Origin: Thermoanaerobaculia bacterium
Lineage (GTDB): Bacteria > Acidobacteriota > Thermoanaerobaculia > UBA5066
Reading direction: 5' to 3'
NCBI GenBank assembly: GCA_963816185.1
Contig: CAWFJJ010000024.1
Coordinates: 6,635-70,634, forward strand
Length of the DNA stretch: 64,000 bases
Positions 1,664 through 20,602 of this stretch are shown here, piece by piece. A model generated the notes under the pieces. The model was given only the letters and a program-made list of their open reading frames with translations, ran no database searches and was not told the DNA's origin. The translations under genes were made by a program, and so were the position numbers. How positions within the stretch are numbered: the stretch's first letter is position 1; every line of letters begins with the position of its first letter.

Positions 1664-3284
1664 TTAATCCGGCACGTGGTTAATTTTCAACTGTACGGAG
1701 GAGGTTGAGCCTGGTTCAACCCGCACGGTGGCCGCATTGGGCATCAGGGCGCGCAGACGCGAAGGGTCCGCGATGGTGGGCGGATCGAACTTGTCCAGCG
1801 CGATCGCGTTGTACCCGCCTGGAGGAATCCCGGTCAGTTCGAAGGTCTTGCCGGAGGCTTGAACCGAGTAACCCACCCCCGTCAAATTCGGCGGGAACAA
1901 AACGATCGTGGCAGTATCCGCATCGTCAATGGTCCCGCGAACGGTACCAGCCGGCTTGAGGACAATCTTTAGCGGCGGGGATGCGGGCGTCAGCTCGACG
2001 CTTTGCCCCGTGATGTCGGCGGATCCTTGCAATATCGAGTCAACGTAGTAGTTTCCAGTCTCGACGTCGGCCTGGATTCGACTGGTTCCCGGAAGCATCA
2101 TCTCACCGAATCGCAATACGCCATCCGGGCCGATCGGGGCCCTCATCATGGCGGAGGCGGTATCCGACATTACGGTCACAGACACAGAGACCCCGGGGGC
2201 GGGAGTAGAGCCATCGCTCACGACCACCGATACAGGGAGAGAGAGACTGACGGGTGTCACGAACTGTATCGTCAAGTTCGTCCGGGTCCTGGTGCTCCAC
2301 TCGGAACGCGGCGCTGCCGAATCTGAGGAAATTTCGCTGCTGGATCTCGTCGCGAATCCAGTCGGAGGTGGCTTGAGCTGTCCACTCGCCCATCCGGACC
2401 GAAGGGAACTCGAACACCCCATCTGCCGCCGTGGTGACGGGCTGCTCGTCAGCTTGCCCTCCACCTGGACCATTCCTGAAGGAAAAGGTGAGCCCTTTGC
2501 CGGCGGACCCATTAATGGTGAGACCCGGTGTAGTTAGGAACCTTGGCATGGAGCTGGACTTTGGCTTTGGCGGCCGGTTTGCCATCGGGGTCCAGCACGA
2601 TGCCTCGGACGCGGTGGACCTCGGCGGACTGCAATCGGATCTCATACCCGTCCAACTCCGCGCCTGGGTGAACCGCGATTGATTCCGCCTGGGACCGGTC
2701 GAGAGCGGACGGGTAGTAAGTGGGGACCACTTCCGTTCGGATTTCATCCTTCGCCGACACATGTTCCGCAACACGTTTTGTCAGGATGGGCCGTGCCAGC
2801 AGGGTGTATTGGCCGGGTGCGAGATTTTCGAAAACGAAGGAGCCGTCCGTACCGGTGTTGAGGCTGCTGCTGCGGACTAAGCTCCACCGCCGCTCGCGCC
2901 GGGTTTCCGTCCGTGCCGATGACGCGGCCGCGAAGAACGGCGGGCGGAATCAGCTCGAATCGGTAGCGAACCGGTTCGGCACTAGCAGCTGATGTGGCGC
3001 TTGGGTGGCTCCTTTAAGGGATCAAGTCGCGTCCGACTGGGGGTACTGTATCCGGTCTTCTGCACGGAAGAACTATAGTCGCCGTCAGTCAGTCCGGAGA
3101 GGTGAAACGTTCCCGCGTCGTCCGTGACGGCTTTGTAGCTGTTGGTGCCGCTGCTCCAGAACCACACGGTAACGCCGCCGATGCCCGCGCCGGTGACTTT
3201 GTTGACCACCACGCCTTCGACGGTCGCAGTCTCCTGCGCGGCCGCTAAAGCGGCCAGAGCGGCGCAGAAGACTGCGAGTTTCAT
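1664..3284 (-). CDS. Secreted protein with several carboxypeptidase-regulatory-like (CarboxypepD_reg, prealbumin-fold) domains; frameshifted in this sequence
   Basis: ORFs 2982-3284 (signal peptide + TVEGVVVNKVTGAGIGGVTVWF...DDAGTFHLSGLTDGDY), 2512-2760 (VRGIVLDPDGKPAAKAKVQL), 2103-2774 and 1664-2512 lie in three frames on the same strand. Each carries the G.V.D..G.P...A.V CarboxypepD_reg signature. Confidence 0.5.
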
Positions 3285-3295
3285 GGAACGAGTAT

Positions 3296-4378
3296 TTATT
3301 TACCCGGCTTGAGGGTGAGTTTCTGGACGCGCCAGTTCAGGATCTCGGCGACGTACAGCTCGTTTTCCGAGGGGCACGCCATTTCGTGGATCCAGCCGAA
3401 CTCCTTGGGCTGGCGGCCGGACCGGCCGAGCCATCCCAGCACCTTTCCGTCCAGCGACAGCTTGTACACGCGGCCGGGGTAGGCGTCGGCGCTATAGAGA
3501 TACTGCGTTCCAGGTCCGGGCGTGATGCAGATGGCCCAGGGCGCGCCGGCGCTCGCCACGTCCGCTTGGGTGCGGAGTGTTGCTGAACCAGGATTTGGCG
3601 TTGGGCGCGACCGGCACGTCGATGGTGATGATCTTCTTGAAATTGCCGTCGTGATCGTATACCTGGATGCGGCGGTTGCCGCGGTCGGCGATATAGATGT
3701 TGCCTTGCGCGTCGGCGGCGATGCTGTGCGGCGTGTTGAACTCGCCCGGCGCCGGCATGGCGCGATTCATCGGACCGGACCGCCCCAGGACTTGATCCAG
3801 TCGCCATTCTTATCGAGCTTGGCGACGCGCGAGTTGATGTAGCCGTCGCTGATGAAGATGTTGCCTTCCGGGTCCCAGGTGACGTCGGTGGGCTGGCGGA
3901 ATCGGCCGTCCTGCGCGGGACGCGGCGGATTCGGATGCTCCAGGGGATTCGCGTTTTCGTCGGAGGCTTCGGACTTGCGGCCGAACACCATCATGACGCG
4001 TCCCTGCGGATTGAACTTGACGATCATGTCCGAGCCTTTGTCGACGGCCCAGAGATTATCCTGGCGGTCGACCCGCACGGTGTGCGCGAAGGACCAGGCG
4101 TAGAGGTTCTTGCCGATTTCGCGCAGGAACTTGCCGTTCTTATCGAACAGCAGGACCTGCGACGCGGTGGCTCCATAGGCGGGGCCGGTGGTGTTGCCGC
4201 GCGAGAAGACGTAAACCTGGCCCTGGGAGTTCACCGCGACGCCGGCGGTTTCGCCGAAATGCAGATCGTCGGGCAGTTTGAAGAAATCCGGGTTCGAGTC
4301 AAACGGGATTTCGGGAACGCTCTGGCCGAATGCGAGCGCCCCGGCCGCGCAGAACAGGGCGAGGGTGGCAGTTTTCAT
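3296..4378 (-). CDS. NHL-repeat six-bladed beta-propeller protein, secreted; two frameshifts
   Basis: Pieces 3767-4378 (signal peptide MKTATLALFCAAGALAFGQ; GQVYVFSRGN, DNLWAVDKGSDMIVKF, GNIFISDGYINSRVAKL), 3492-3770 (GNIYIADRGNRRIQVYDHDGN) and 3296-3559 (YLYSADAYPGRVYKLSLDGK) tile a contiguous NHL propeller in three frames. Confidence 0.6.
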
Positions 4379-4401
4379 GAAGCAAATTGTAGCGCGTTAT
4401 A

Positions 4402-6040
4402 GTGGGGAATAGAATGGGAGCGCGGCAGTGGGCGGTCGTCGGTTTCTGGATTGCGCTGCCTGCATGGGCGCAGTTGCCGACCTGCAGCGTCCCAACCTGG
4501 AGCGCCTGCGATCTGGCGTTCGATCTTGAGGCCGGCGAAAATCCCGCCACGGTCCAATTGCATGGCGAGTTCCGGTCCGCCAAGCGGACATTGCTGATTC
4601 AGGCGTTCCGCGACGGCGATCGTAGATATGTCCTGCGGTTCGCGCCTACCGAGCCCGGCGAATGGGCCTATCGGCTGACCAGCAACCTGAAGCGTCTGGA
4701 CGGGCAGTTGGGCAAGGCTACGGCCACCGCTTCGGACTCGCCGGGTTTTGTCAAAGTGGCGAACGTCCATCATTTTGCCTACGAAGGCACCAACAAACAG
4801 CATCTCTGGATGGCGACGGCGATCGACGATTTCGTCAAGATCCCACGCGCCGACTTCGACAGCGCTGTGACACAGAGGGTCGCTGAGAAGTTCACGCATC
4901 TGCGCGTGACCATCGCCAAGGATGCCGATCTGGACGAGGCGGCGGAACGGATTCGGGCGATCAACGCGCGGGGCGTGGTCGCGGACGTGGTTCTGGGCGG
5001 CATTCCTCCCGATAGGCAGGAGCGGGAACGATACATGACGGATATCGCGGCGACGTTTCTCCGCGTTCAACATTACCTGGATGGGCGCGCCGGCTTTCGA
5101 GAATATTCCCAACGGGAAAGCGATCCTGAAAGATGCGGGAACGCTGCTGGCGAAGCTCGATCCTTATAATCATCCGCGAACGTCCATGGCGGAGGTGACC
5201 TCTTCGCCGCTCCTGGGCGATCAGTGGATGAGCGTTCTCAGTTACGGCACCGCCGATCCGAACGTGGGCGCGGTGGAGCACCAGTTTTACGCGATGCCGG
5301 CGGTGAACACCGGAATCCAGTCCGAGCGCGATTTGTGGAACGCCACCATGAACGGGCAGTATCCGGCCTCCGGATCGGGCAAGTATATGACGGCCTGGTT
5401 CGATTTCATGTCGGGAAATCGCTACTGGGAGCTGGAGCCTTATTTCGACGTGGATGGCGGGCGGGCGGTGGCGCTGGAAGACGTGGAGTATATCGTTTAC
5501 GTCGAGAAGCCCGGGCCGGTGGAGCTGACGGTCGAGGATCACGGCTACGACGTGGTCTGGATCAATCCGGAGACGGGCGAGCGCATCAAGGCGAAGAATT
5601 ACAAAGGCAAACATTTCACCGGCGAGCCTCCCGACAAATCGCATGACTGGGTGCTGCGCGTTTCGCGCGAAGGGACCAAGGAGGGGATGCTGAGGTCCTA
5701 CAAGTTCGACTCGCGGGAGGTTCCTATTCGGCTTCAGGAGATCGAGACGAATCCAGCAGAAGATGCCGTTCGAGGTGGCGACGCCCGACGGAGACATTTC
5801 GATGGCGTTGCCGCCGCCGTTATTCCTTGAAGATCACGCGCCCGACGCGCGCTACGCGGGAACTTCTGGTCGAATGGACGGCTGAGGTGGTGCTGGATGG
5901 CGAAGGTTTTCGCGTGGTGGGAACCGGCAGCAAAGGGATGATGCGTATCCCGAGCGTCGATTGTGCACAAACTGCCCGGCACGTTGAGCCTGCGGGTGTC
6001 GATCCTGAACGCGAATGGCAAGGCGTACGCGATCGATAAA
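4402..6040 (+). CDS. Secreted DUF5060/DUF4038-like putative glycoside hydrolase with a collagen-binding-like C-terminal domain; frameshifted
   Basis: Signal peptide MGARQWAVVGFWIALPAWAQ. The N-terminal Ig-like region has the EPGEWAYRL motif; the central region continues in ORF 5081-5830; the YWELEPYFDVDGG...VWINPETGE tail resembles the collagen-binding beta-sandwich usually fused to DUF4038. Family assignment is from memory of domain signatures. Confidence 0.4.
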
Positions 6041-6057
6041 GTGTATCGGCTGGGACC

Positions 6058-6711
6058 GTGAGCGAGACGAACTGTTGCTTGGCGATCGATACCACCGAGC
6101 GAGATTCAGCGTAAGCTGGAGACTGTGCGCTTCTGCATCGATACGACGGCGCCGCAGTCGAGGCCGCGTGCTGGAAGAAGTCGCGCTGCATTCGCCCGAC
6201 GGCTTCGCGCACGTCATGTTTCCCGAGATCGAGGCGCTGCTCGCGCGGCACAATCTCAAGATCACCGACATCGAAGGCTTTGCCGCCGCCGCGGGACCCG
6301 GATCGTTTACCGGCGTTCGCGTGGGCCTGACGGCCGCGAAAGGTCTGGCGGAAGCGACCGGCCGCAAAGTGGTCGCGGTTTCGAACTTGCAAGCCATCGC
6401 GTCCTTCGGCACGCGCGCGCTGCGCGGCTCCGGTGATCGACGCGCGGCGCGGCGACATATTCGGCGCGGTCTACGATGCGGATCTGCGGCTGGTGGCCCC
6501 CGAGGTCGTGATGAAATTCGACGACTGGCTGCGAACGTTGCCTGAGGGACGTGGAAGTGATCGACCGACGCTCCGAAACTGCTCGCCGGAGCCATCGCGC
6601 AGAATCGCCGCAGCGCGGTTCGAAGCCGGACTGGCGCAAGATCCCGCCGAGATCGACGCGAACTACGTTCGCCGCTCCGATGCGGAATTGATGTGGCGAG
6701 ATAAGGTATAA
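6058..6711 (+). CDS. tsaB: tRNA threonylcarbamoyladenosine biosynthesis protein TsaB (YeaZ); frameshifted
   Basis: GTG start with LAIDTTERDSA in one frame, then HVMFPEIEALLARHNL...GFAAAAGPGSFTGVRVGLTAAKGLAEATGRKVVAVSNLQAIA, then the C-terminus IDARRGDIFGAVYDADLRLV in ORF 6433-6711. These are classic TsaB motifs. Confidence 0.7.
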
Positions 6712-6718
6712 CGATTGA

Positions 6719-7629
6719 ATGGTCGTCATCCTGGAGGCGGTTTCCGGACCGGTTTTAGGAAGGCGAATCGAAGTGCGCGGCGGGAGCATCGTGCGCATCG
6801 GGCGCACGGGCAAATCCGACTATCCCGATCGCCGAAGACGGATACCTTTCTGGCCTGCACTTTGCGGTGGAATGCGACGGAACGCAGTGCCGCATCCGCG
6901 ACCTCGGTTCGAGCAACGGAACCTTCGTAAACGGATCGCGCGTTACCGAACAAGTGGTTCAGGAAGGCGATTCCGTGGTGGCGGGCGGATCCACGTTTTG
7001 CGTTCACGTCGACCTGCTGCCCTCGATCACCGGCGGTCGGGATGCCCAGGGCGGCAACGGCGCCGACGCCGCTCGCGGTCGCGACCAAGGTCATGAGCGA
7101 GCCCGCAGCCGCCGGAGAGCTGGATACTCGCCCGCGGAAACGGCGTTGTTGAGCGCGATGTACGTCGCCCGGCGAGGAAGTATTCGCGGTGGTGGACGCA
7201 TCGCGCGATTCGCGCATCCCGGCGTTTCTGGATGCCGCCGGCGAGATGTACACGCCTTGGAATCGTCGAAGAGCGCGCCGGTTTCTGGTCGCGCTGCCGG
7301 CCGATTCTCGCCTGGTGCACGTGCTGATCAAGGACGGATGGGGCCGCGGCTGGGGGTTTTACGGAACGTCCAAGGCCAGCCTGGAGACCGTTCGCGCGCA
7401 TTTCACCAGCTTCGTGAGTCTGCAGACGTCTTCCGGAGCGGCCATGACCTTCCGCTTCTGGGACCCGCGCGTGTTGCGGGCGATGGTGCCCGCGATGCCG
7501 CCGGAAGAAGCCGACGCGTTCTTCGGGCCGTGCGAGAGGATCATCGTGGAAGCGGAAAAACCGACCATGGCGCTGGAGTTTTCGCGGTCGCCAGGGCGAC
7601 CCCGGCAGCAGACCATCGTGCTGGGTTAA
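6719..7629 (+). CDS. FHA domain protein fused to a C-terminal DUF4123 domain; two apparent frameshifts
   Basis: N-terminal FHA: GRRIEVRGGSIVRIGRTGKSDY...LHFAVECDGTQCRIRDLGSSNGTFVNGSRV. C-terminal ~155 aa in a single frame (7162-7629): VFAVVDASRD...WGRGWGFYGTSKASLETVRAHFTSF...MTFRFWDPRVLRAMVPAMPPEEADAFFGP, matching the DUF4123 signature (FRFYDPRVL, FGP). Confidence 0.6.
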
Positions 7630-7639
7630 CTTAAAAAGC

Positions 7640-8323
7640 TTAGAAGTGCTGCTTTAAATCCGCGAAGCGCTCGACTCGCAGGAATCGCGCGCCGGGCGGG
7701 GTGCGCAGCTCCTGATGCTCCAGCACCCAGGTGCGGGCGTGGGGCACCAGCACAGCTCCCAAACCCGCCTCGAGCGCGGGATTGATGTCGGACTTGGGCG
7801 AATTGCCGATCATCCACGTTTTCGCCGCGGAGAACGCGTTCTCCGCTATCAGACGGGAGTAAGCCCGCGAATCTTTTTCCTTCACGATCGCGGTGTAGGA
7901 GAAATGGCGGCCCAGGCCGGAGCGGTCGACCTTCATGCGCTGCTCATCGGGATGGCCTTTGGTGAACAGCGCCAGTTGATGCCGCTGGGCGAGTTCTTCG
8001 AGCGTTTCTTCCACGCCTTCGATCAGCTCGATGGGCTGCTCCAGAATGCGCTCGGCCAGCGACATCACGTGCTCCAGGTCGTCGGGCCGGATTTCCCGCT
8101 CGGCCAAGTGCTGGTAGGCCTGCTGCAGGTTGCGGCCGAAATTGCGCGATCCGTAGCCGTGGATCTTGGAATTCACCAGCTCGATTTCATTGAGCACGTC
8201 GCGGATCTGCGGCGGCGGTCAGCGAGGAATGCGCCAGAAACTCCACGAAATCGTCGAACGCGCTCTCGAAGTAGATATTGTTTTCCCAGAGCGTGTCGTC
8301 CGCGTCGAAAATAAGGACACTCA
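7640..8323 (-). CDS. HAD-superfamily hydrolase (subfamily IA-like); one frameshift near 8200
   Basis: Motif I MSVLIFDADDTLWE lies at 8323 in one frame. The rest (ORF 7640-8197) carries the HAD motif IV segment MIGNSPKSDINPALEAGLGAVLV. Confidence 0.7.
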
Positions 8324-8339
8324 TTCGGGTTTGTGGTGG

Positions 8340-8945
8340 GCGTGGCCGTTGCTGCCGGCGACGTTCTTGGTGTGTTGAATCTTCCTGCGGCGCTCCAGGA
8401 ATCCCGGCAGGAAGCCGGCGATCTGGCGCATTCGCTCGGCTTCGCTGCGCATGGTCAGCAGGGTCTGGCGGAACCCCAGGTCGGGCACTTCCTGGGCCAG
8501 GCGAAAGCTCAGGCGTGGATCACCCTGTTTGGGTCGTTACTGTTGAGCGATTGCAGCTCGCTGAATCCGGCGATCACGTTTCGTGAGCAGGTCCGGATCC
8601 GCGCGGCTCGGATCGGATCGGGCTCATCATCGTCAAAGAATTCGACGGCCCCGCGCAAGAAGGATCGCTCGTCGTTCAGCAGCAGCACTTCGAAGCGGCG
8701 CCGGCCGCGGGTCAGGATATCCAGCCGTCCATCGGGATACTCTTTCAACACGCGGTCCACCGTGGCCTGCAGCCGGTATTGACGATGCCTTTTTCGCTGG
8801 CCAGAACCACGCCGAACTCGAGCTTATCGCGCAGCACTTCCCCGATCATTTCCTTATAGCGGTCCTCGAAAATATGGAGAGGGAGCTGCGATCCCGGAAG
8901 CAACACAACCTGAAGTGGAAACAACGGCAGCAAGCCGTCCTGCAT
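8340..8945 (-). CDS. LON substrate-binding (N-terminal) domain protein; frameshifted
   Basis: LPLFPLQVVLLPGSQLPLHIFEDRYKEMI matches the start of the Lon N-domain. It continues in ORF 8509-8760 (RVLKEYPDGRLDILTRGRRRFEV). Confidence 0.55.
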
Positions 8946-8981
8946 GTTACTATTATGGCGTTGGATCTGTTTTCAGCGCGA

Positions 8982-9520
8982 TGATTCTTAAGCTCAAGCG
9001 AACGCCGGGAATTTTTCTGGTGGGGTTCATGGGAAGCGGCAAATCCACGGTCGGCCGCGCGCTGGCCGAAGAGCTCGGCTGGGGATTCGCCGATCTGGAT
9101 GAAGACATCGAGAAGCGCGAAGGCATGTCCATCAGCCAGATTTTCGATACCCGCGGGGAAGCGGAGTTCCGGCAAGCCGAGACGGCCGCGCTGCAGGAAC
9201 GCGTGCGCCTGATCGAGCGCGGGAAGCCGTGCGTGATCGCCCTCGGCGGCGGGGCTTTCTTGAGCGAAGAGAATTTCGAGATCGTCTCGAACAACGGCGT
9301 CAGCGTGTGGCTGGATTGTCCGTTTTCGACGGTCGAGCGGCGGTTGGCGGGGCAACACGTGGAATAAACCATCGTCCGCTGGCGCGCGATCCGGAAAAGC
9401 TGCGGGAGTTGTTCGCCGTGCGCCGCGCAGGGTACGAGCGCGCCGATTACTGCGTTCGCGGTGGAGAACGACGACGCGGCCGCGACGACCGCGAAAATCC
9501 TGGCGCTGCCGCTGTTTTAG
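8982..9520 (+). CDS. aroK: Shikimate kinase; one frameshift
   Basis: The Walker A segment IFLVGFMGSGKSTVGRALAEELGWGFADLD is followed by SQIFDTRGEAEFR. The C-terminus RPLARDPEKLRELFAVRRAGYERADYCV is in a second frame and ends at TAG 9518-9520. Confidence 0.75.
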
Positions 9521-9608
9521 GAAAATGGGGACAGCCAGCCGATTTCGGCGTGCCGTACCGGACAGGGAAGCGATCGTTCTTCGAAATCGGAGGCAGTCCC
9601 CATTTTCC
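9520..9608. terminator. Long imperfect nested inverted repeat (~28-bp stem, 34-nt loop) between aroK and the glycerate kinase gene; possible terminator/attenuator or structured RNA
   Basis: Left arm GGAAAATGGGGACAGCC..CCGATTTCG pairs with right arm CGAAATCGG..GGCAGTCCCCATTTTCC. It shares the AAAAWGGGGAC...GTCCCCWTTTT core with the hairpin at 36827-36896. Confidence 0.35.
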
Positions 9609-9612
9609 GGTA

Positions 9613-10870
9613 ATGCGTAAACACGCTCTCCAGATCTTTCGCGCGGCGCTGGATGCGGCCGATCCTTACGCGGCGGTTCTGCGGCATCTGAAATTTGACG
9701 GGCGCACGCTGATCGCGGGCCGCCGCCGGTACCGGATGGCCGATTTCGATCGCATTCAGGTGATCGGAGCGGGGAAAGCCAGCGCCGCGATGGCTCGCGC
9801 GGTGGAGCACGTTCTGGGGCGGTTCATCAAAGGCGGAATCGTCAATGTGCCCGACGGAACGGCACGCCAAGCTGCGGCGAATCGAGCTAAACCAGGCTGG
9901 CCATCCGATTCCGGATGAGCGCGGCCAGCAGGGAGCGCAGCGGATTCTCGAAATCGCGCGAGAAGCTGGGCCGCGGGATCTGCTCATTTGCGTGATCTCG
10001 GGCGGCGCGTCGGCGTTGATGCCCGCACCGTCTCCGCTGCTGACTCTGGCCGCCAAGCAGGAGATCACGCGCAAATTGCTGCAACGCGGGCGCGACGATC
10101 CACGAGCTCAATACAGTCCGCAAGCATCTGAGTCTGATCAAGGGCGGACAGCTCGCTGCCGCGGCATCTCCGGCGTGTGTGCTTAGCCTGATCCTCTCGG
10201 ATGTGATCGGGGACGATCTGGATGTGATCGGGTCAGGACCGACGGTCGGAGATTCGTCCACGGTGGCAGCAGGCGGAGTCCGTGCTGCGAAAGTTTGGTG
10301 TTTCCGTTCCCGCGGGCGTTCTTCTCGAAACGCCGAAAGCTACGCAGGCGCAGAACCTGATCTTTAATTGATCATCGGCAGCAACCGGCTGGCGATGGAT
10401 GCGGCGGCTGCGAAGGCCAAGGATCTGGGATATCGCACGCTGGTGCTCTCGAGTTCGGTGGACGGAGAGACGCGCGAGATCGCACGAATGCACGCGGCCA
10501 TCGTGAAGGAAATCCTGACGGCAGGGCGGCCCGTGCGTCGTCCGGCGTGTCTGCTTTCGGGCGGCGAGACGACGGTCACGGTGCGCGGCAAAGGGACTCG
10601 GCGGACGGAATCAGGAATTCGTTCTGGCGGCGGCGATCGCGCTGGAGGGTTTCGGTCCTGCGACGATTTTCAGCGCGGGCACCGATGGTCTGGATGGTCC
10701 CACGGATGCGGCGGGGGCGATCGCGGATGAAAGAACGCCGCTGGCGGACGCGCGCCGAATTCCTGGACAACAACGACTCGTATCACTTCTTCGAGAAGCT
10801 GGACGCGTTGGTCAAAACCGGTCCGACGGGAACCAACGTCATGGACGTGCGGATTCTGCTGGTTCCGTGA
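9613..10870 (+). CDS. Glycerate 2-kinase, MOFRL family (TtuD/GckA-like); about four frameshifts
   Basis: Segments [26 protein letters not shown]...[16 protein letters not shown], then [45 protein letters not shown], then [22 protein letters not shown], then a C-terminus [35 protein letters not shown] spread over four ORF fragments. Confidence 0.7.
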
Positions 10871-11015
10871 ATGGAGCAGGCGCCACGCCTGCACGGGCTA
10901 GCCGCGCTGGGTCGAAGTCGGACTTGAGGCCCGCCCGTCAGGGCTGGAGACCTACCACACGAGCTACTGCTCGACCGGCTGCGGCGGTTTAGCCGCAGCT
11001 GGCGACACACTATCG

Positions 11016-12372
11016 CTAGCCGAAGCCGACCGCACCAACACCTGGCCGTCGGTCGAAATATTCACGGACGGTCCGCCGTTGGAGCCGCGCAAGGTAGCGC
11101 CCCGGCGGCCCATCGGTTCCAGCTTCAGCGGCGCGCCGAACTCGTTTTCCACCGAACCGAGTCTGCTGGTGGCGGTCAGATCGAATTTGGCGGACAGCCG
11201 GCAGCGCCAGCTCGATGTGACCGGTGCGGCTGCGGACGTCCATTTTCGCCAGCGGGAGCAGGCCGGGCCGCAAGTCCACGTCGCCTCCGTTCAGATTGAT
11301 GTCGAGCGAATTGGTGAAATTCGCGAGGCTCACGTCCCACGACCGCGAAGACGTCATCCGCACCGGACCGGTCAGATCGGACGCGTTCAGATTACCCAGC
11401 GTGACGCGCATATCGGTCACCTTCTCGGCGGAAAACTCGGTATAGGGGGTGACGATCCGCAGCGGCTTGGCGAGATTGTGAAGCTGCGAGTTTCCGGTAA
11501 ACGTGCCGTTGATGGTGACCGGCCCGGCGATGTCCTGCAGGTCGATATCGGAACCGCGGCCCTTCAACTCCACCGATCCTTTGACTTTGGCCGCGCGCAG
11601 GATGTCGCTGCCGCGCACCTCCACCATCACGTCGCCCCCGATGTCTTCCAGGCGCACGCTGGCATTATCGGAGTTGACGTCGATGGAGCCATTGACGCCG
11701 CTGATATCGAAATCGCCCGAGCGGCCGTGCGCTTCAATGGTGGCTCCTTTGGGAACCACGATCTCCAGGTCGGCCGACATGCGGCGGTTGCCGCCGGAAA
11801 CCCGGTTCTGCCAGGTGCGAACGTGGATTTCGTTGGGATCTCCATCCACTTCGAGCGGCGCTTCCTGATTGGCGCGATCCGCGGAAGCCTGGTCCAGGCT
11901 GCGAATGGTGGAATGGCCGGTCACTTTCACGGTCTGGACATCGGCGCCGGTGATGCGGGCATTGCCGCGAAAACTCTCGAGGATCACGCGCGGGGCTTTG
12001 GTCGAGGGTTTCTCGGCGGCGACCGGGTAGTCGTAACTCTCGCCGAAGATATCCAGGCCTCCCAGTTCAATCCGGCTGCCCGGTCAGCCAGGGGGAGAAT
12101 CCACGTACGGCGTGCAGGCTCACGCCGAGAAAGCACAGGAAGATGACCAGCACCCATTCGCCGCTGCTGATGCCGTGCGAGGGAAGCGAACGGGAGGTGG
12201 CCGCCCAGAACAGGATCTCGATCAGCCGCAAGCCGCCCCACACGACCAGAAGCAGCGGCCAGTACCTGGCCAGATAGTCCAGCAGCTGCATCTCGGGAAA
12301 AACGTTGCGGGCCAGGAACAAAAGCCCGATGCCGATCAGCAACAGGGGCGCGACCAAGGAAGCTCGTCTCAT
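11016..12372 (-). CDS. LiaF-like envelope-stress-module protein: N-terminal LiaI-LiaF-type TM region fused to a C-terminal Toastrack (DUF4097) domain; one frameshift near 12000-12070
   Basis: N-terminus MRRASLVAPLLLIGIGLLFLARNV...YWPLLLVVWGGLRLIEIL is membrane-embedded (ORF 12067-12372). ORF 11016-11987 is a repetitive beta-strand domain (G.V.V...GSI.V..) typical of DUF4097. Confidence 0.55.
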
Positions 12373-12590
12373 AGGTTTCTGGCTCCCGGGTCGTTTGGAT
12401 TAAAGGGGGGCGGGGCGGCGTCTTTAGGTCCCAGATGTTCGGCCAGCTTGAACAGTCCGAACAGGATCAGCAGCACCGGCCAGGTGCGCGAGAAACTCAT
12501 CCGGTCGAGCTGATCGGCGGCCATCAGCAGCCCCAGCGCGACCAGCAGCACGGGTCCTCGAATCGCCACAAGAAAACTACCGCCGGTCAT
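12369..12590 (-). CDS. Small membrane protein, paralog of the LiaI-LiaF-TM region of neighbouring genes
   Basis: 73 aa, two TM helices; RTWPVLLILFGLFKLAEHL parallels RYWPLLLVVWGGLRLIEIL (11016-12372) and LKYWPVMLIALGLYMLYL (12587-13266). It overlaps both neighbours by 4 bp. Confidence 0.45.
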   Translation of the reverse strand: MTGGSFLVAIRGPVLLVALGLLMAADQLDRMSFSRTWPVLLILFGLFKLAEHLGPKDAAPPPFNPNDPGARNL

Positions 12591-13266
12591 TGATTCACCC
12601 CCGAGGAATTTCCGGTCATCCGCAGATACAGCATGTAGAGACCCAGCGCGATCAGCATCACCGGCCAGTACTTGAGCATGCGCCGGAGCTCGAAGAGTTC
12701 GAGATTGTTCAGCAGGAACACCACGCCCAGAGCGATCAGCAGAATGGGCGCTACCGGGAACCGCGATCCGCCGTGGCCCGGCACCAGGCTGGAGAATTCG
12801 TCCACCGGCTGGCCCATCTGGCGGAGCTTGGCGGTGTGGTACGCCTCAAACGCCATGTACGCCCAGAATCCCGGGATCAGCACTCCAAACAGCGGCTCGA
12901 ATCCGCCGACATCGTTGCTGCCGACAATCGTGAACAGCATCCCCAGGATGAAAACATGGATCAGGCCCTTGGCGTACTGGCCGTTATAGATCGCGCCGAC
13001 TCCCGGGATCAGCCCCAGGACAAAAGCGACTCCCGGAGACACGTCGGAGTGCGGAATCGGAGGCGGCTTGCGGAATAGCTGTATAAGGGCTGGCGTAAGG
13101 AGAATCGCTTGGCTGGGAAGATGGGTTCGGCAGGCACGTGCTCGGCGCAGTAGATGGTCCCGTGCGCGGTATGGACGCTGGCCGCATCGAGCGCTTTTCC
13201 GCAGGCCCGGCAATAGCCGACGATGGGGGTTTCGGGTGGAATCGAAGGAGGGGCTTCCGGGTTCAT
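12587..13266 (-). CDS. Zinc-ribbon membrane protein with C-terminal LiaI-LiaF-TM-like region; one frameshift
   Basis: N-terminus (ORF 13009-13266) holds the zinc ribbon YCRACGKALDAASVHTAHGTIYCAEH. It continues in ORF 12587-13321 with TM helices (GLIPGVGAIYNGQYAKGLIHVFILGMLF) and the C-terminal LRRMLKYWPVMLIALGLYML. Confidence 0.5.
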
Positions 13267-13865
13267 TTCGTTTCTCCTGCGGGACTGCGGGTGGCTGCGG
13301 TTGTGACGGCCGGCTGCTCATCGGCCCATTCCTTGAGCCGGGTTTGGATTTCGTAGACGACCTTCAGGCTGTCGTAATACTTCACGCCGCGGTTATACCA
13401 GCGGACCACGCGATCCTCCGCCGCGGTCCAGACTTTCACCGGATCGAGGTCGGCGGGCGTCAGTTGGCGCACATTCGTAAAGCGGCCGATCATGGCGAAG
13501 GACAGGACGGTCATCGCCATGCCCATGGCGAATCTCGGCTGCAGCACCGGCTCGCAGCACTCCTCCAAACAACCGGCCGAACAGGCGGCGAGCCAGCGAA
13601 GGCTTGATGATGGCGTGGCTGGGTCCCGCGGTCACCTCGAACAGGATGCGCGTGACCAGTTCGGCAGGCGCGTCGACTGCCGAGGCGCGCTCCATGAAGG
13701 CGACTGCTCCGGCGGAATCGCGAGCCAGTTCCGCGCAGGCCGCGCATCCGGCCAGGTGGGCTTCGAGGGCGGACTTCTCCTCAGCCTGGGCGCGAGCGTT
13801 CCGTCCACGTAGTCGGCCAGCAGGATTTCTACATCCCGCAGTTCACAACATTCCTTTAAAGGCAC
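13263..13865 (-). CDS. Anti-sigma factor (zf-HC2-type N-terminus, single TM); several frameshifts; start approximate
   Basis: LKECCELRDVEILLADYVDGTLAP follows directly after sigma region 4 inside ORF 13632-14624. The C-terminal part is in ORF 13263-13568 with TM helix PVLQPRFAMGMAMTVLSFAMIGRF. Confidence 0.45.
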
Positions 13866-14465
13866 TGAGCCCTTGTAATGCTTGAGGATCCGCCCCAGTT
13901 CGGCGCGGCCCCGATTCAATCTCGACTTCACTGTGCCTTCCGGCACATTCAGCACCTGAGCGATTTCCCGGTATTCCAGCTCTTCCAGATCGCGCAGGAT
14001 CACGGTTTCGCGCAAATCCGGCGAAAGCTTCTGCAGCGCGGCCTGCAGGACCTCGCTCGCTTCCCGCCCGGCCAGCAACCCTTCGGTCCGGCCCATGGAA
14101 GCGGTTTTTTCCTCCAGCATCGGCAACTGCTCTTCGATCGAGCTGCTGGCGCGCTCCAGCTTGCTACGACGGTAATGATCGATCAACAGATTACGCGTCA
14201 GCCGGGAAAGCCACACCGCAAACGAACCCTCGCCGGCCCGGAAGCTTTTGAGCGACCGGAACACGCGCAGGAAGACGTCCTGGGTGAGGTCCTGGGCTTC
14301 GTGATCCGAGCCGGTGAACCGGTAACAGATCGCGTACACACGCCGGGTATGGACTTTGACCAGGTCCTCCCAGGCGGCCTCCTCGCCGCCCAGGCAGCGC
14401 TCGACCAGTTGAGTGTCTGCGTCCAAGAGCCGTCCCAGGATCTCACGAGGCTCGCGAAATCCGAC
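13866..14465 (-). CDS. ECF-type RNA polymerase sigma-70 factor (group 4); start approximate
   Basis: Region 2: LVERCLGGEEAAWEDLVKVHTRRVYAICYRFTGSDHEAQDLTQDVFLRVFRSL. Region 4: LSPDLRETVILRDLEELEYREIAQVLNVPEGTVKSRLNRGRAEL. The track ORF runs on into the anti-sigma factor (stop lost or frameshift). Confidence 0.7.
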
Positions 14466-14565
14466 CCGATATCCGGCTCCAAAGCGATCCCTCTCCGGCG
14501 GCCGAGCGGCTGGGCGTGGTAACCTGTCGGACTGTAGCGATTGCCGCCATGGCGTTGCGTCGTGC

Positions 14566-14593
14566 GAACGAATCCTTGTGTCTCGATATGTTC
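14566..14593 (-). promoter_or_regulatory. Candidate ECF-type autoregulated promoter (GGAAC-N18-TCGTT) upstream of the sigma/anti-sigma operon
   Basis: On the minus strand GGAAC (14593-14589), an 18-nt spacer and TCGTT (14570-14566) sit ~90 nt upstream of the predicted sigma start, in the divergent region shared with the gene at 14746. Confidence 0.3.
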
Positions 14594-14745
14594 CCGGATA
14601 CCGTACTCGTTTATGAGGTTCCACATATGAGAACGAAATCCCCGCATGGAAAGTTCGCTCTACATTCTATCCACATGCGAGGGTATGGCGGGGCCGAGCA
14701 TGATCGAAGTCGATCCGGGACGTCCGAAGGGAGCAGCTGTAAGAG

Positions 14746-15795
14746 ATTGAAAAAGCAACACGTGGGCGCCGGGCTGGGAGTTCTCGCGATCCTCGCCGCC
14801 GTGCTGTTCGTGGTCTACCGCTGGCGCCATTCCGGTTTCGTCTGGGAGAAGTTCGCGGCCGTCTTCAGCGACGTCGACTGGAGCTGGCTGTCGCTGGCCC
14901 TGGCGCTGATCCTGGCGACCTACGTCGGCCGCGCCCTGCGCTGGGAGATCATGCTGCGGCCTTTGACCAAGGGGGTCCGCCTGTGGGGCCTGGTGGTGGC
15001 CACCTGCATCGGATTCACCGCAGTGGTGCTGTTTGGCCGCGCGGGCGAGCCGGTTCGCCCCTATCTCATCGCCCGGAAGGAGGGCGTGTCGTTCTCGAGC
15101 CAGGTGGCCGCCTGGCTGGTGGAGCGCATTCTGGACCTGCTGATGGTCCTGCTGATCTTCGGCATCGCCCTGACGCAGATATCGCGCAGCGGAATCCAGC
15201 CCGGGCCGCACATCCAATCGGCGCTGCAGGCCGCGGGCTGCTGGCGGGAATCACCGGGGCGCTATCCTTGGCCTTGCTGCTGGGGCTTCGGTACTTCCGC
15301 GGAAGCGTCCGGACCCGGCTGATGGATTCCCTATCGTTCCTGCCGGAAGCGCTGCATCAGAAAGTCGCCCGATTCCTGCATGCCTTCGAAGAAGGGATGC
15401 AATCCACGCCAGCGCCAGTCCTACGTCTGGCTGCTGGTGACTTACACGGTCATCGAGTGGCTGGTGATCGCGGGATGTTTTTTCTGCGTCTTCCGGGCGT
15501 TTCCGGCTACGGCGGGATGCGTATTACGGATGTAATCATCGCGTTAGGCTTTGTTGCCTTTGGGAGCGTCCTGCAGATACCGGGGGTGGGCGGCGGCATG
15601 CAGATCGCGACGGTTCTGGTGCTGACCGAGCTCTATGGGGTCAGCCTGGAGGAGGCCAGCGGAATCGCATTGGTGCTTTGGATCATCACATTCGTAGTGA
15701 TTGTGCCGCTGGGGCTGGTTCTGGCGTTCCATGAAGGAATCAAGTGGCGTAGTTTAAGACATATAGACTCGTCTTCCTCAGGCTACGAATTATGA
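14746..15795 (+). CDS. UPF0104 / lysylphosphatidylglycerol-synthase-TM-region family (flippase-like) integral membrane protein; one frameshift near 15200
   Basis: Multi-pass membrane protein GVLAILAAVLFVVYRW...LRWEIMLRP...FTAVVLFGRAGEPVRPYLIARKEGVSFSSQVAAWLVERILD. It continues in ORF 14983-15795 (IALGFVAFGSVLQIPGVGGGMQIATVLVLTELYGVSLEEASGIALVLW). The start is TTG 14746 or GTG 14761. Confidence 0.55.
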   Translation: MEKATRGRRAGSSRDPRRRAVRGLPLAPFRFRLGEVRGRLQRRRLELAVAGPGADPGDLRRPRPALGDHAAAFDQGGPPVGPGGGHLHRIHRSGAVWPRGRAGSPLSHRPEGGRVVLEPGGRLAGGAHSGPADGPADLRHRPDADIAQRNPARAAHPIGAAGRGLLAGITGALSLALLLGLRYFRGSVRTRLMDSLSFLPEALHQKVARFLHAFEEGMQSTPAPVLRLAAGDLHGHRVAGDRGMFFLRLPGVSGYGGMRITDVIIALGFVAFGSVLQIPGVGGGMQIATVLVLTELYGVSLEEASGIALVLWIITFVVIVPLGLVLAFHEGIKWRSLRHIDSSSSGYEL

Positions 15796-16310
15796 CTTGC
15801 CCGTTCTGCCGCCATCGCCAGGACCGGGTGATCGACTCCCGCGAGAGCAAAGAAGGCGACCTGATCCGCCGCCGTCGGGAGTGTCTGAAGTGCCTGCGCC
15901 GGTTCACCACCTACGAGCGCAGCGACGAGATTCCCTACATGGTGGTGAAGAGGGACGGCCGGCGGGAGCGCTTCGACCGCCAAAAGGTGCTGGAAGGGCT
16001 GCTAAGAGCTTGTGAGAAAAGGCCGGTACCCATCGCCAAGCTGGCGGAAGTGGTGGATGCCGTCGAGTCGGCGCTGGCCGAGAACCCGGAACGCGAGGTT
16101 TCGACGACAGCGATCGGGGAACTGGTGTTGGAGCGCCTGAAGAAGCTGGATAAGATCGCCTATGTGCGGTTTGCTTCGGTTTACAAGGACTTTCAGGACG
16201 CGGAATCCTTCCTGGTGGAGCTGAAGGACCTGTTCCAGGACGGAAATGAGCTCGTTGCGAGTCCTGGCAAGCCTGTAACCAAAAGCGATTTCAAGCATCT
16301 TTTGAAATAG
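15792..16310 (+). CDS. nrdR: Transcriptional repressor NrdR
   Basis: Intact 172 aa: MTCPFCRHRQDRVIDSRESKEGDLIRRRRECLKCLRRFTTYE (zinc ribbon) followed by the ATP-cone (YVRFASVYKDF). The start overlaps the upstream stop (ATGA). Confidence 0.9.
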   Translation: MTCPFCRHRQDRVIDSRESKEGDLIRRRRECLKCLRRFTTYERSDEIPYMVVKRDGRRERFDRQKVLEGLLRACEKRPVPIAKLAEVVDAVESALAENPEREVSTTAIGELVLERLKKLDKIAYVRFASVYKDFQDAESFLVELKDLFQDGNELVASPGKPVTKSDFKHLLK

Positions 16311-16427
16311 AGACTTAACTTAATTTCGGAAGACTGATATACTGGATGCGGCTTCGACGCCAAGGCAGGAATTGCATACACTACCGTTGGGTCTAGCTAA
16401 GTCTTTGGAAAACAAGGTGTTTATAGT

Positions 16428-17984
16428 TTGGCGCGGGTGAACCACGTGGATCATTTCGAAGACCAATTCCTAGGCGAGGGTCACGAGCCGCTCGGTGGAC
16501 TTCCTTTCGACGAGGAAGGCGGCTTTTTTCACCCTGAGGAGGTGCATGACGGCGAAGATTTCGCCCACGCGCATCCCGTCGAGGAATCGATTTACACCGA
16601 CGACCCGGTTCGCGTGTATCTGCGCGAAATGGGCGCCGTGCCCCTGCTGACTCGCGAGGGCGAAGTTAATCTGGCCCGCCGCATGGAGCGGGGCAAGCTG
16701 CGGATGCAGAAGGCTATTAGCCGCTCCGCGCTGGTCCAGTTGCGGGCCGTCGAAATCGCCGATCAGATCAAGCACGAGCCCGAGGAACTGGATACCTACG
16801 TGGATCTGGGGGATCTCGAGGAAGAGAGCCCCGCCTACAACAAGCGCCGCAACGAAGTTCGCGCGGACTTGGCCGAGCTGGCGGTTCTGCACAAGAAGCT
16901 GGGGCAGGTATCCGACAAGCTGGATTCGGTTCCGCTCAGCAACAAGAAGCTGCGCCGCAAGTGGATCGGCAAGATGAAGCGCGCCCGGGTGCAGGTTTCC
17001 CAGGCGATCCGGCATCTGCCCTACTACCTGTCGCAGTGGAAGGAATTCACCAAGGAAATCGAGAAGGTCGCGGAAGAGATGTCGCGCCTGGAAGCGGATC
17101 TGCGCAAGATCGAGGGACGTTCGAGCCAGACCGCGCAGACCAAGGCCCGGGAAATCCGGCGCGAAATCCGCAAGCGCGAGGAAATCGCCGGGGCGAACCT
17201 GGGCGACCTCAAGCACACGCTCTCCGTGATCCGCCACGGCGAAATCGAAGCCGAGCGGGCCAAGAAAGATCTGGTCGAGGCCAACCTCCGCCTGGTGGTT
17301 TCCGTCGCCAAGAAGTACGTCAACCGCGGTCTGCACTTGCTGGATCTGATCCAGGAAGGCAACATCGGCCTGATGCGCGCCGCCGACAAGTTCGAATACC
17401 GGCGCGGCTACAAGTTTTCGACCTACGCCACCTGGTGGATCCGGCAGGCCATTACGCGCGCCATCGCCGACCAGTCGCGCACCATTCGTATTCCCGTTCA
17501 CATGAACGAGAGCATGAACAAGTTCCTGCGCGCCACTCGCGAGCTGGAAAAAGAAATGGGCCGCGCGCCGTCGAACGACGAAATCAGCCGGCGCATGGAC
17601 ATTCCGGTGGAGAAGGTCCAGAAGCTGAAGACCATCTCGCGCGATCCGGTGTCGCTCGAAACTCCGGTCGGCCGCGACGGCGAATCCGCCCTGGGCGATC
17701 TGATCGAAGACCGCTGGGTGGGATCGCCGGTGGACGCCGTCATCGACACCAACGTTCGCGACGAGACCGCCAACATCCTCAAGACGCTTTCTCCCAAGGA
17801 GGAGAAGGTGATCCGGCTGCGCTTCGGCATCGGCTGCGAGCGCGAGCATACGCTCGAAGAGATCGGCCAGGAGTTCGACGTCACGCGCGAACGTATCCGG
17901 CAGATCGAAGCCAAGGCGCTGCGGCAACTGCGGTCGCCGGAGCGGGCTCGGCACCTGCGGGCTGCTGCTGGCCGCGCGCGATAA
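16428..17984 (+). CDS. rpoD: RNA polymerase primary sigma factor RpoD
   Basis: Intact 518 aa: [17 protein letters not shown], the rpoD box [71 protein letters not shown], and region 4 [27 protein letters not shown]. Confidence 0.9.
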
Positions 17985-17995
17985 CGCTTCCACAG

Positions 17996-19247
17996 TCAGT
18001 TCGCGACCCGCCAGGGCGAAAACTCCGTCCACGTCTTGAGCGACTTGTTGGCCCACTCCGCGGTCTCGCCGGTGTGACAGGACGTGCAGGAGTTGGGCAT
18101 CTTCAGGCGATCGGCTTCCAACGGGGCGATGAACTTGAACGTGTGGCTGCGCACGTTGGTGGTGGTGAATTCCTGCTCGATCTTCGGCATGTGGCAGTTC
18201 ACGCACTCGTTGCCCGGCGGATCCGGCGGGATGATGAGTGTGCTGCTCGATGCGTCGCCGGTGTGCGGGCCGTTCGGCGAATTCGGGCCGTGGCATTGCA
18301 GGCACAGCTCATTGGCTGGGCGGATCAGGTCGGCGTTGTTCTCCGTGCCGTGCACGTCATGGCAGGTGAAACAGGTGATGCCGCGGGTGTACATCAGGCT
18401 CTGGACGAAGTCATTGCCCTGCATGCGATTCTTATGTGCGGTTCCATCTGGGAAGTGAGTGAACGTCGTTTCGCCCAGCTTGTGATCTTCGAGCTTCCAG
18501 AAATCGCTTAGCTTCTTCGTCGCATCGTTCGTCACAGTGAAGCCGACCGGCCAGTCGTAGTATTTTCCCTGAATCGGATTCGCCAGCGGCTGGCCTTGGG
18601 AGTGGCATTGAATGCAGACGTCGACTCCGCGAGCGCCGAGGCGCGCCGGATTCACGATATTCGCGCGGGAAGGCCGGGCGACATGCAGGCTGCCCGGGCC
18701 GTGGCATTTTTCGCAGCCCACGTTCCATTCGGTGACGGTCTTGGTCTGGATGTTGTAGTTGACCGAGTGGCAGCCGTCGCACAGCGGGCCGGTGGGCCGC
18801 TGCATGTTGTCGGGAGGATAGTGAGCCGCCCACCAATCGGTGCCATTGGCGACCTGATATCGGCTCCAGCGTTGATTGGCCACGTCCCACTGCGCGGGCA
18901 AGGGAAAGTAATCGTCGCCGACCTTGGTGAAGTAGCGCTGCTTCCACTTGCTGCCGTAGACGAAGGCGATGGCGTCCTTGGTGAAGGTGACGATGGCCGG
19001 ATCGGCCTTGCTGAGATCGGGAATGATCGCGTCCGGATGCTCCTTGGGATCGCGCACGACGTTCGCCATGCGGGTCTTCGTCCAGCGCTCGTAGGTCGAG
19101 GCGTGGCAGGTCTTGCAGGCGGCCGATCCGGTGTAGGTGGCCGTCTGCGCGGAGAGCGCCCCGGCGAATGCCGAATGCGAGAAAACCAATCACTCCGAGT
19201 GAGCGCCAGGATCTGGCGAGTTCTCTTGGAAATAGCATTTTGGACAT
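17996..19247 (-). CDS. Octaheme c-type cytochrome (8 CxxCH), periplasmic; frameshift inside the signal peptide
   Basis: Heme motifs CKTCH, CDGCH, CEKCH, CIQCH, CFTCH, CLQCH, CVNCH, CTSCH. ATG 19247 (MSKMLFPRELARSWRSLGVIGFLAFG) joins the main frame at TTG 19189. Confidence 0.7.
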
Positions 19248-19449
19248 ACCCCGTTAGAGATAAGTATGGCAGGAATGAGGCATGAAGAAATACGTTCGTG
19301 CGGTTCTGGACGACCTGAAATCGAAAGCCGGGAAGAAGCAAAATCCGGTGGTGCCGCAGGATCTGAACAACCAGACTCTGTCCAAGGATCCGCAGCAAAA
19401 GGTCCGGCAACTCGACTATCAGGCGCAGAAGGACGAGGAGCGGAGACGC

Positions 19450-20589
19450 TTTCCTAGAATACCGGCGTTCCCGGCCTAGCAGCACGGCGCGGCGGGCGCC
19501 GGTGGCCGAAGGCAGGTTGCCGGGCCGGCTCATGACGAACTCGTGGGCGAGCAGGGCGAAGGCGATGGCTTCTTTGGCGTCCGGGTCGATACCGTGGTCG
19601 GCGCTGGTCGACACGTTGAAACCCGGCAGAAGCTCGCGCAGGCGGCGCATGAGCCAGCGATTGTGAACGCCGCCGCCGGAGGCGATGACTTCGCGCGCGT
19701 CACCTGCATCAGAACCGGAATACGCGTGATCGCCGAAGCGACGGAGCGCGCCGTGAACTCGGTGGCCGTGGCGATCAGAACGTCCAGCGCGAAGGCCGGT
19801 CGCGGCCAGGCCGCTGGCGAACTCCTGGCCGAACTGTTCGCGGCCGGTGGTCTTGGGCGGACGAAGCTTGAAATAGGGATCGGCCAGCATCGACGCGAGC
19901 ATGCGATCGTGGACTTTGGCGCGGCGTGCGATGCGGCCGTCGCGGTCGTAAGTCTGGCGGCCTTCGGTCATGCGGGAAACCAGCGCGTCGATCACCATGT
20001 TGCCGGGGCCCGTGTCGAACGCCAGGACGTCGTCGCGCGTGGCGCCGCCCGGAATCACGGTGATGTTGGCGATGCCGCCGAGGTTCAGCGCGACGCGGCC
20101 GATGCGGCGATGGCGGAACAACAGGTAATCGGCAAGCGGCACCAGGGGAGCGCCATGCCCGCCGGCGGCGATATCGCGCTCGCGGAAATTGGAGATGGTC
20201 CACAGGCCGGTGCGCTCGGCCACGACCGAGGCGTCGCCGATCTGGAACGTGCTGGCGACGCGGCGGCCGAGATAGTTCACCGGCGCGCCTTCGTGAAAAA
20301 TGGTCTGGCCGTGCAGGCCGCACAGCGAAATCGAGTGCAGGGGAACGCGCCGGCGGCGGCAGGTTTCGCGAACGGCTTCGGCGTAAAGCTCGCCCAGCAG
20401 GAAGTGCAGACGCGCGATGGCCGAGGTGTGGGTCATGGTGTTGGACACGCCCAGGATGGCCTCGCGCACGTTCTTGGGGTAGGGAACCGTGTGGAAGGCG
20501 ACCGGCTCGATCTTCTTGCCGCGGATATCGACGATGGCGACGTCGATCCCGTCGAGCGAGGTGCCGCTCATGATGCCGGCGACTCGCAT
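19450..20589 (-). CDS. anmK: Anhydro-N-acetylmuramic acid kinase
   Basis: ATG at 20589: MRVAGIMSGTSLDGIDVAIVDI...GHGAPLVPLADYLLF...AIAFALLAHEFVMSRPGNLPSATGARRAVLLG. The 3' end is approximate. Confidence 0.75.
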
Positions 20590-20602
20590 CAATTCTTTAG
20601 TT

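Follow-up and report, generated by a model that had tools for sequence, protein, structure and literature searches.

The locus considered here raises the question of why a gene that joins an FHA domain to a DUF4123 domain, the latter best known from adaptors of type VI secretion systems (T6SS), should be found between tsaB and a gene for a HAD-family hydrolase, away from any secretion genes. A first-pass annotation of the window (the whole 64-kb stretch of DNA analysed) had already described this setting, and it is borne out: tsaB lies directly upstream, the HAD gene is convergent, and tblastn searches of the 64 kb gave no homologues of TssA, TssB, TssC, TssE, TssF, TssG, TssK, TssL, ClpV, VgrG, PAAR, Hcp or ImpE. 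A kinase catalytic-loop motif was likewise not found in the window. There is no promoter-like site between tsaB and the FHA-DUF4123 gene (hereafter FD) in the window, and to judge from the sequence the two genes are likely to be co-transcribed. The features of the locus are collected in Table 1.

Table 1. Features of the FD locus. Coordinates are positions in the window; amino acid (aa) numbers refer to the conceptual FD protein.
Feature	Coordinates	Strand	Remarks
DUF5060-family gene	4414–6058	+	upstream of tsaB; conserved left flank, present also where a T6SS operon follows tsaB
tsaB (TsaD/Peptidase_M22 family)	6096–6711	+	separated from the FD start codon by 7 nt
FD gene (FHA-DUF4123)	6719–7629	+	conceptual CDS of ~302 aa; ATG at 6719, TAA at 7627–7629; ~7 small indels corrected
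FHA domain, aa 1 to ~98	6719–7015	+	phosphothreonine-binding residues G28-R29, S44, H47, N66
Linker, aa ~100–133	7016–7120	+	Pro/Ala/Thr-rich, disordered, poorly conserved
DUF4123 alpha/beta domain, aa ~134–302	7121–7626	+	corresponds to the N-terminal lobe of Tap-type T6SS adaptors; C-terminal helical lobe apparently absent
Window-specific indels breaking the FD frame	6824–7280		from DNA alignment with six intact relatives and frameshift-aware protein alignment
HAD-family hydrolase gene	7643–8348	-	conserved right flank of the orphan arrangement

The FD region does not contain a single long ORF, and one protein is spread over the three forward frames. When the conceptual translation was compared with Pfam profiles, both domains named by the first-pass annotation passed their thresholds, FHA (PF00498) with 50.0 bits against a cutoff of 20.7 (aa 25–87) and DUF4123 (PF13503) with 64.1 bits against a cutoff of 25.8 (aa 156–266). 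The phosphothreonine-binding residues of the FHA domain are all present in FD and are invariant throughout the FD family, the linker differs in length among the aligned homologues, and the DUF4123 half carries the motifs FRFWDPR and FFGP. Comparison with NCBIfam gave only sub-threshold matches of FHA type, and the Tla1 chaperone model was matched faintly.

A homology search with FD returned 564 matches, among them more than 100 intact, full-length homologues (55–84% identity) that are encoded by single ORFs of 285–320 aa. Nearly all of the best 120 of these 564 matches are single-ORF FHA+DUF4123 proteins with 52–84% identity, and FD matches the family with an E value of ~1e-155 over 100% of its length, collinear from end to end. 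An exhaustive profile search gave 476 clusters (at 50% identity) with E<=1e-30, most of them of 290–330 aa and matching end to end. Those homologues that carry a taxonomic name come from metagenome-assembled genomes (MAGs) of Acidobacteriia/Terriglobia/Bryobacterales. Since intact single-ORF homologues are abundant in Terriglobia/Bryobacterales, the sequence comparisons identify the fusion as genuine and not as two genes with a true stop between them, just as had been proposed. The architecture was, on the other hand, called unusual in the first-pass annotation, which overstates its rarity: apart from the numbers just given, Unterweger et al. (2015) listed 'Fha' among the extra domains of DUF4123 proteins, and Liu et al. 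(2020) found FHA to be the commonest extra domain, present in 1.1% of DUF4123 proteins. No functional study of the FHA-DUF4123 architecture was found in the literature searched. What is new is thus not the architecture itself, but the behaviour of FD as a member of the core operon, its single-lobe structure, its repeated retention as an orphan and the existence of a parallel FHA-DUF1795 fusion, all described below.

The broken reading frame had been put down to two frameshifts, a number that proved too low and not specific to this gene. Alignment with the DNA of six intact relatives, all from short-read assemblies (contigs named in the k141 or NODE style), places one-base insertions at 6824, 7035, 7107, 7119 and 7167, a deletion of one base after 7256 and a deletion of two bases after 7279, so that about seven corrections are needed. 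A frameshift-aware protein alignment to intact homologues gave four frame corrections (6824, 7035, ~7109 and 7164); the pair of indels at 7256 and 7279 was missed by this low-penalty aligner and called by the DNA alignment. Some seven frame-breaking indels within 911 bp, in a place from which the T6SS genes have gone, could be read as the mark of a decaying pseudogene, with real frameshifts and FD as the dead remnant of a deleted T6SS operon. The surroundings speak strongly against this. Using as references the proteins of a syntenic contig (L004) whose genes are called intact, the frameshift-aware aligner detected 42 frameshifts in 12.3 kb across 14 neighbouring genes (block 3270–16250), or 3.4 per kb, including four in tsaB and two in the shikimate kinase gene, both of them essential, and the density in FD by the same aligner, 4.4 per kb, is not exceptional. 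In-frame stops are absent from FD once the frames are corrected, and essentially absent from the neighbouring genes. The corrected protein is ~89–90% identical to intact homologues (268/301 residues to P0003 and 273/302 to P0001), and in the clade of orphan copies (see below) all the full genes examined, which lie on contigs with intact calls for the adjoining genes, are intact as well and subject to purifying selection. Because the essential neighbours are equally riddled, the frame breaks in FD are assembly errors and not gene decay, and a pseudogene is very improbable.

As to the origin of this noise, the closest public relatives have contig names of metaFlye style and several are 'MFD' MAGs; the window is probably an error-rich assembly of long-read origin. 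Indels of one or two bases are pervasive in 3270–16250 and probably in the whole window, and any call of a 'pseudogene' within it is therefore unsafe. More generally, frameshifted ORFs in long-read MAGs should be compared with their neighbours before they are called pseudogenes.

The close homologue P0001 was modelled with AlphaFold2 from 73 aligned sequences (mean pLDDT 84), and the model consists of an FHA beta-sandwich (residues 1–98), a disordered linker (101–133, with pLDDT <50) and an alpha/beta domain (137–300). A sequence search of the PDB recovered FHA domains only, and the DUF4123 relative emerged solely by fold comparison, in which this half of FD has the fold of the N-terminal alpha/beta lobe of the solved adaptor Tap3. 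According to the paper describing it, Tap3 is bilobed, with an alpha/beta N-domain (1–198) and a five-helix C-domain (199–302), and its effector is contacted by both lobes; the C-lobe had earlier been proposed as the variable, effector-recognising lobe of Tap6. The DUF4123 domain of FD is ~165 aa long and ends in beta strands, and from its length and secondary structure it would have room for the N-lobe only, so that FD, not being bilobed, apparently lacks the helical C-terminal lobe.

In the relatives of FD that are embedded in T6SS clusters, the operon reads tssB-tssC-hcp-impE-tssA-tssE-tssF-tssG-clpV-[vgrG]-[variable cargo]-[PAAR]-FD-tssK, with tssK as the last gene and FD as the penultimate one (~40 related loci). 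Such loci include L002 with L089, L003, L008–L011, L086/87, L091 and L092. An earlier scan of contigs had been dominated by generic FHA matches, with full-length FD relatives at only 6 of the 80 loci kept; the scan of JGI metagenomes accordingly used an alignment of DUF4123 only to avoid such matches, and returned 80 loci. At 32 of these 80 listed loci FD is flanked by T6SS genes, and nine of the 32 show clpV-FD-tssK with no vgrG. Since clpV-FD-tssK occurs without vgrG, gene order indicates that FD behaves as a constant member of the operon, beside spike and cargo genes that vary. At the level of the family, the connection with T6SS that had been drawn from the domain content is thus confirmed, as relatives sit inside T6SS operons beside vgrG/PAAR and tssK. 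At L003 a PhdYeFM/PIN toxin-antitoxin pair (11011–11720) has been inserted between FD and tssK.

The more specific proposal, that FD is an effector adaptor, stands only in part. With the Tap/Tec adaptors (V. cholerae Tap-1/VasW, P. aeruginosa Tap6, P. putida Tap3, PDB 9R8G) FD shares a DUF4123 match above threshold and the fold of the Tap3 N-lobe, and its relatives are likewise encoded after vgrG/PAAR within T6SS clusters. These likenesses would fit a classical Tap/Tec adaptor that loads one cognate effector, encoded elsewhere, onto one VgrG. Unlike those proteins, however, FD carries DUF4123 C-terminally, behind an FHA domain, and appears to consist of the alpha/beta N-lobe alone, without the five-helix lobe, which in Tap3 shares effector binding with the N-lobe. 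The FD gene is constant over clusters in which the number of vgrG genes, the cargo and PAAR vary or are absent, down to the nine clpV-FD-tssK loci; it always adjoins tssK and not a toxin-immunity pair, and the copy in the window has neither vgrG nor an effector/immunity neighbour. We regard a classical adaptor as highly unlikely.

The other known system with which FD invites comparison is TagH/Fha1 (TIGR03354), an FHA scaffold of the T6SS threonine-phosphorylation pathway. Both have an N-terminal FHA domain with intact phosphothreonine-binding residues, and FD is the sole FHA gene in the T6SS operons examined, adjoining tssK. This position recalls the fha-tssJ-tssK-tssL gene orders of Proteobacteria. 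The TagH model nevertheless fails on FD (21 bits against a cutoff of 120.25), matching only the FHA part (aa 25–97), and the C-terminal domain of FD is DUF4123 and not the C-terminal region of TagH. The genes for PpkA and PppA, which accompany TagH, were not seen in the FD flanks (up to 10 kb on each side), nor were genes for TagH, TssJ or TssM annotated in the relatives' operons and fetched flanks, L089, L091 and L092 among them; the same flanks, up to 10 kb per side, contained no members of the Ser/Thr kinase (Pkinase) or PP2C phosphatase families. A tssL (DotU) gene was found only in L011, where it follows a second, divergent tssK (40% identity) 3.5 kb downstream (15870–18035), so that the membrane-complex genes may be encoded separately.

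A second protein of comparable design was found in a T6SS operon of Bryobacterales type (L093, sample ERZ26871208). Here, the slot between vgrG and tssK that FD occupies elsewhere contains two genes on the opposite strand (20235–21332, minus strand), one for PAAR and, adjoining it, one for a 241-aa fusion of FHA with a C-terminal DcrB domain (PF08786, 31.5 bits against a cutoff of 27.2). DcrB belongs to the DUF1795/Eag class of adaptors. The FHA domain is homologous to that of FD (hhalign probability 98%, 37% identity) and in both proteins a domain of an adaptor class stands behind it. The two differ in that the adaptor domain of L093 is not homologous (DUF1795 instead of DUF4123), in the orientation of the gene and in the shorter length of the L093 product. 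As one operon slot holds FHA domains of a single kind joined to either of two non-homologous adaptor classes, the comparison argues for an 'FHA-tethered adaptor' as the functional unit.

Orphan copies of FD share the gene order DUF5060-tsaB-FD-HAD(-)-LON_substr_bdg(-)-SKI-MOFRL…, which is found in the window, in L001, L004/5, L006 and L088, and in at least 39 metagenome loci; none of the orphan-type loci listed had T6SS genes in its 10 kb flanks. The gap between tsaB and FD in this arrangement is 6–22 nt. At L091 and L092 the genes run Lactamase_B_3-DUF5060-tsaB-[tssB…vgrG-PAAR]-FD, with the T6SS block exactly between tsaB and FD. Because the block falls between the same two genes, the tsaB-FD-HAD site of the window is, as judged by synteny, the T6SS locus of its relatives minus tssB…PAAR upstream and tssK downstream, and its location, which the first-pass annotation had seen as oddly remote from any T6SS, is largely explained by this synteny and is not a random one. 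The intergenic region between tsaB and tssB contains a conserved sigma-70-like element, TTGACG-N18-TATACT followed by CGAAC, in both L091 (~6590–6625) and L092 (~6570–6605). This is likely to be the promoter of the T6SS operon, and the orphan arrangement lacks it.

The orphan tsaB-HAD sequences, that of the window among them, group into one large derived clade in neighbour-joining trees, with T6SS-linked sequences on the deeper branches. Three more orphans beside tsaB (L007, L147 and L156) fall among T6SS-linked sequences and differ in what lies to their right; L147 and L007 have a right flank of rubrerythrin-VIT1 and Pyr_redox genes in common. L007 has a cheB-cheD-cheA-cheW block (3712–9545, minus strand) between tsaB and FD, at the point where other relatives carry the T6SS operon. 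FD is also flanked on both sides by T6SS genes at sites away from tsaB (L089/L002, L151 and others). Given that FD travels with T6SS operons at other sites and that the deep branches are T6SS-linked, we infer that the T6SS block was lost or relocated, and FD retained, at least twice; the number of such events is uncertain, since the trees are distance-based and L132 takes an odd position with the L003 group. The reverse course, insertion of a T6SS block between tsaB and a pre-existing FD, was considered and is less parsimonious, with FD flanked by T6SS genes elsewhere and T6SS-linked branches lying deep.

Rates of substitution in the orphan clade bear on whether the retained gene still matters. 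Its dN/dS values are 0.11–0.15 for FHA, 0.20–0.33 for DUF4123 and ~0.5–1.5 for the linker, compared to 0.07–0.09 (FHA) and 0.10–0.13 (DUF4123) for T6SS-linked pairs at similar dS, and 0.05–0.20 for neighbouring housekeeping genes. Among alignment columns with at least 90% conservation, 94 are identical in the orphan and T6SS-linked groups, two are switched and eight are relaxed in the orphans. By these measures the orphan FD is a maintained gene, with both domains under purifying selection and with conserved surfaces that appear essentially unchanged. In a comparison of few pairs at similar dS, the orphans exceed the T6SS-linked copies ~2–3 fold in the DUF4123 ratio; this half is perhaps under somewhat weaker constraint, and the difference could reflect relaxed or changed function.

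Taken together, these observations make it probable that FD is a phospho-dependent accessory of the T6SS spike or baseplate which was retained after local loss of the T6SS and which putatively acts in trans. The arrangement in the window would have arisen when the T6SS block was lost or relocated and FD was selectively retained, with the orphan gene from then on probably riding on the transcription of tsaB. The DUF4123 lobe would dock a partner on the spike side (VgrG, PAAR or a cargo domain) and the FHA domain would engage a phosphothreonine carried by a partner in the baseplate or membrane, or by a kinase. In this manner FD could couple the loading of spike and cargo, or the assembly of the baseplate, to Ser/Thr phosphorylation, a role similar to that of TagH/Fha but on the chassis of an adaptor. 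In the genome from which the window derives it would most probably serve a putative T6SS encoded elsewhere, for example one with an operon like that of L090 (15290–19304), in which clpV is followed directly by tssK, with no vgrG, PAAR or FHA-adaptor gene, and which is not beside tsaB; L090 is a candidate for a system that relies on a trans-encoded FD.

The alternative that deserves most attention is that FD has been kept for a job independent of T6SS, as a phosphothreonine-dependent scaffold expressed along with the housekeeping tsaB operon in a genome without T6SS. It would account for the retention of orphan copies next to tsaB on two or more distinct branches of the tree, for the tight spacing to tsaB with no promoter-like site, for the raised dN/dS of DUF4123 and for the absence of T6SS genes within 64 kb. 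Set against it are the near identity of the conserved columns in orphan and T6SS-linked groups, from which the binding surfaces look unchanged, and the abundance of T6SS operons in this bacterial order (4385 TssA matches). The L090 operon could make use of a copy supplied in trans, and the second tssK beside tssL in L011 suggests that genomes of this group may have more than one T6SS-related locus. On this evidence we consider repurposing unlikely.

Attempts to connect orphan FD copies with a second T6SS locus were negative within the material searched. When contigs bearing orphan FDs were compared with the contigs of 120 TssA matches, the only match was the positive control, a T6SS-type contig of 454,562 bp, and the GenBank accession ranges of three orphan FDs (MBZ5674675, MBZ5632955 and MCU1338985) did not overlap with those of ten TssA proteins. 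The G+C content and tetranucleotide similarity of the loci to the window gave no discrimination, and nothing relevant on T6SS in Acidobacteria/Solibacter was found in the literature searched.

The FD family is of significance beyond this locus. All characterised DUF4123 proteins are, to our knowledge, effector-specific bilobed adaptors, and the FD family is unlike them in joining one half of an adaptor to a phosphopeptide reader, in behaving as part of the core operon and in being kept when the operon is lost. DUF4123 proteins serve as markers for finding T6SS effectors, and the present case cautions that 'orphan' adaptor genes need not flag a nearby effector. The bacteria in question are abundant soil organisms, and we know of no experimental study of T6SS in them. 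A wider model, which we put forward tentatively and hold to be doubtful as it stands, is that in the T6SS of Acidobacteriota (Bryobacterales) the fusion of FHA to adaptors (DUF4123 in most clusters, DUF1795 in at least one) replaces the TagH/PpkA-type module and provides a phosphothreonine-gated checkpoint that ties the loading of spike and cargo to the assembly of the baseplate (TssK); this component would be of enough value to survive repeated loss of the operon, either through a second T6SS served in trans or through a signalling role independent of T6SS. If FHA does gate spike loading or baseplate assembly, this would represent a new wiring of Ser/Thr phosphorylation into T6SS firing.

Some features of the remainder of the window should be mentioned. 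Between ~44000 and 64000 the G+C content rises from ~0.62 to ~0.68–0.71 and the tetranucleotide correlation with the first 44 kb falls to 0.88; this step could mark an island or stem from misassembly or a chimeric join. The window as a whole yielded no tRNA genes. A 1502-aa ORF on the minus strand (18652–23160) encodes MutS domains I–V and, behind them, a complete AnmK (anhydro-MurNAc kinase) domain; it probably represents two adjacent genes which an indel, or the loss of a stop codon, has run together in the noisy sequence. Within the high-G+C part, a 1773-aa ORF, also on the minus strand (54801–60122), has ~10 Ig-like repeats of the He_PIG family and resembles a giant surface protein or adhesin.
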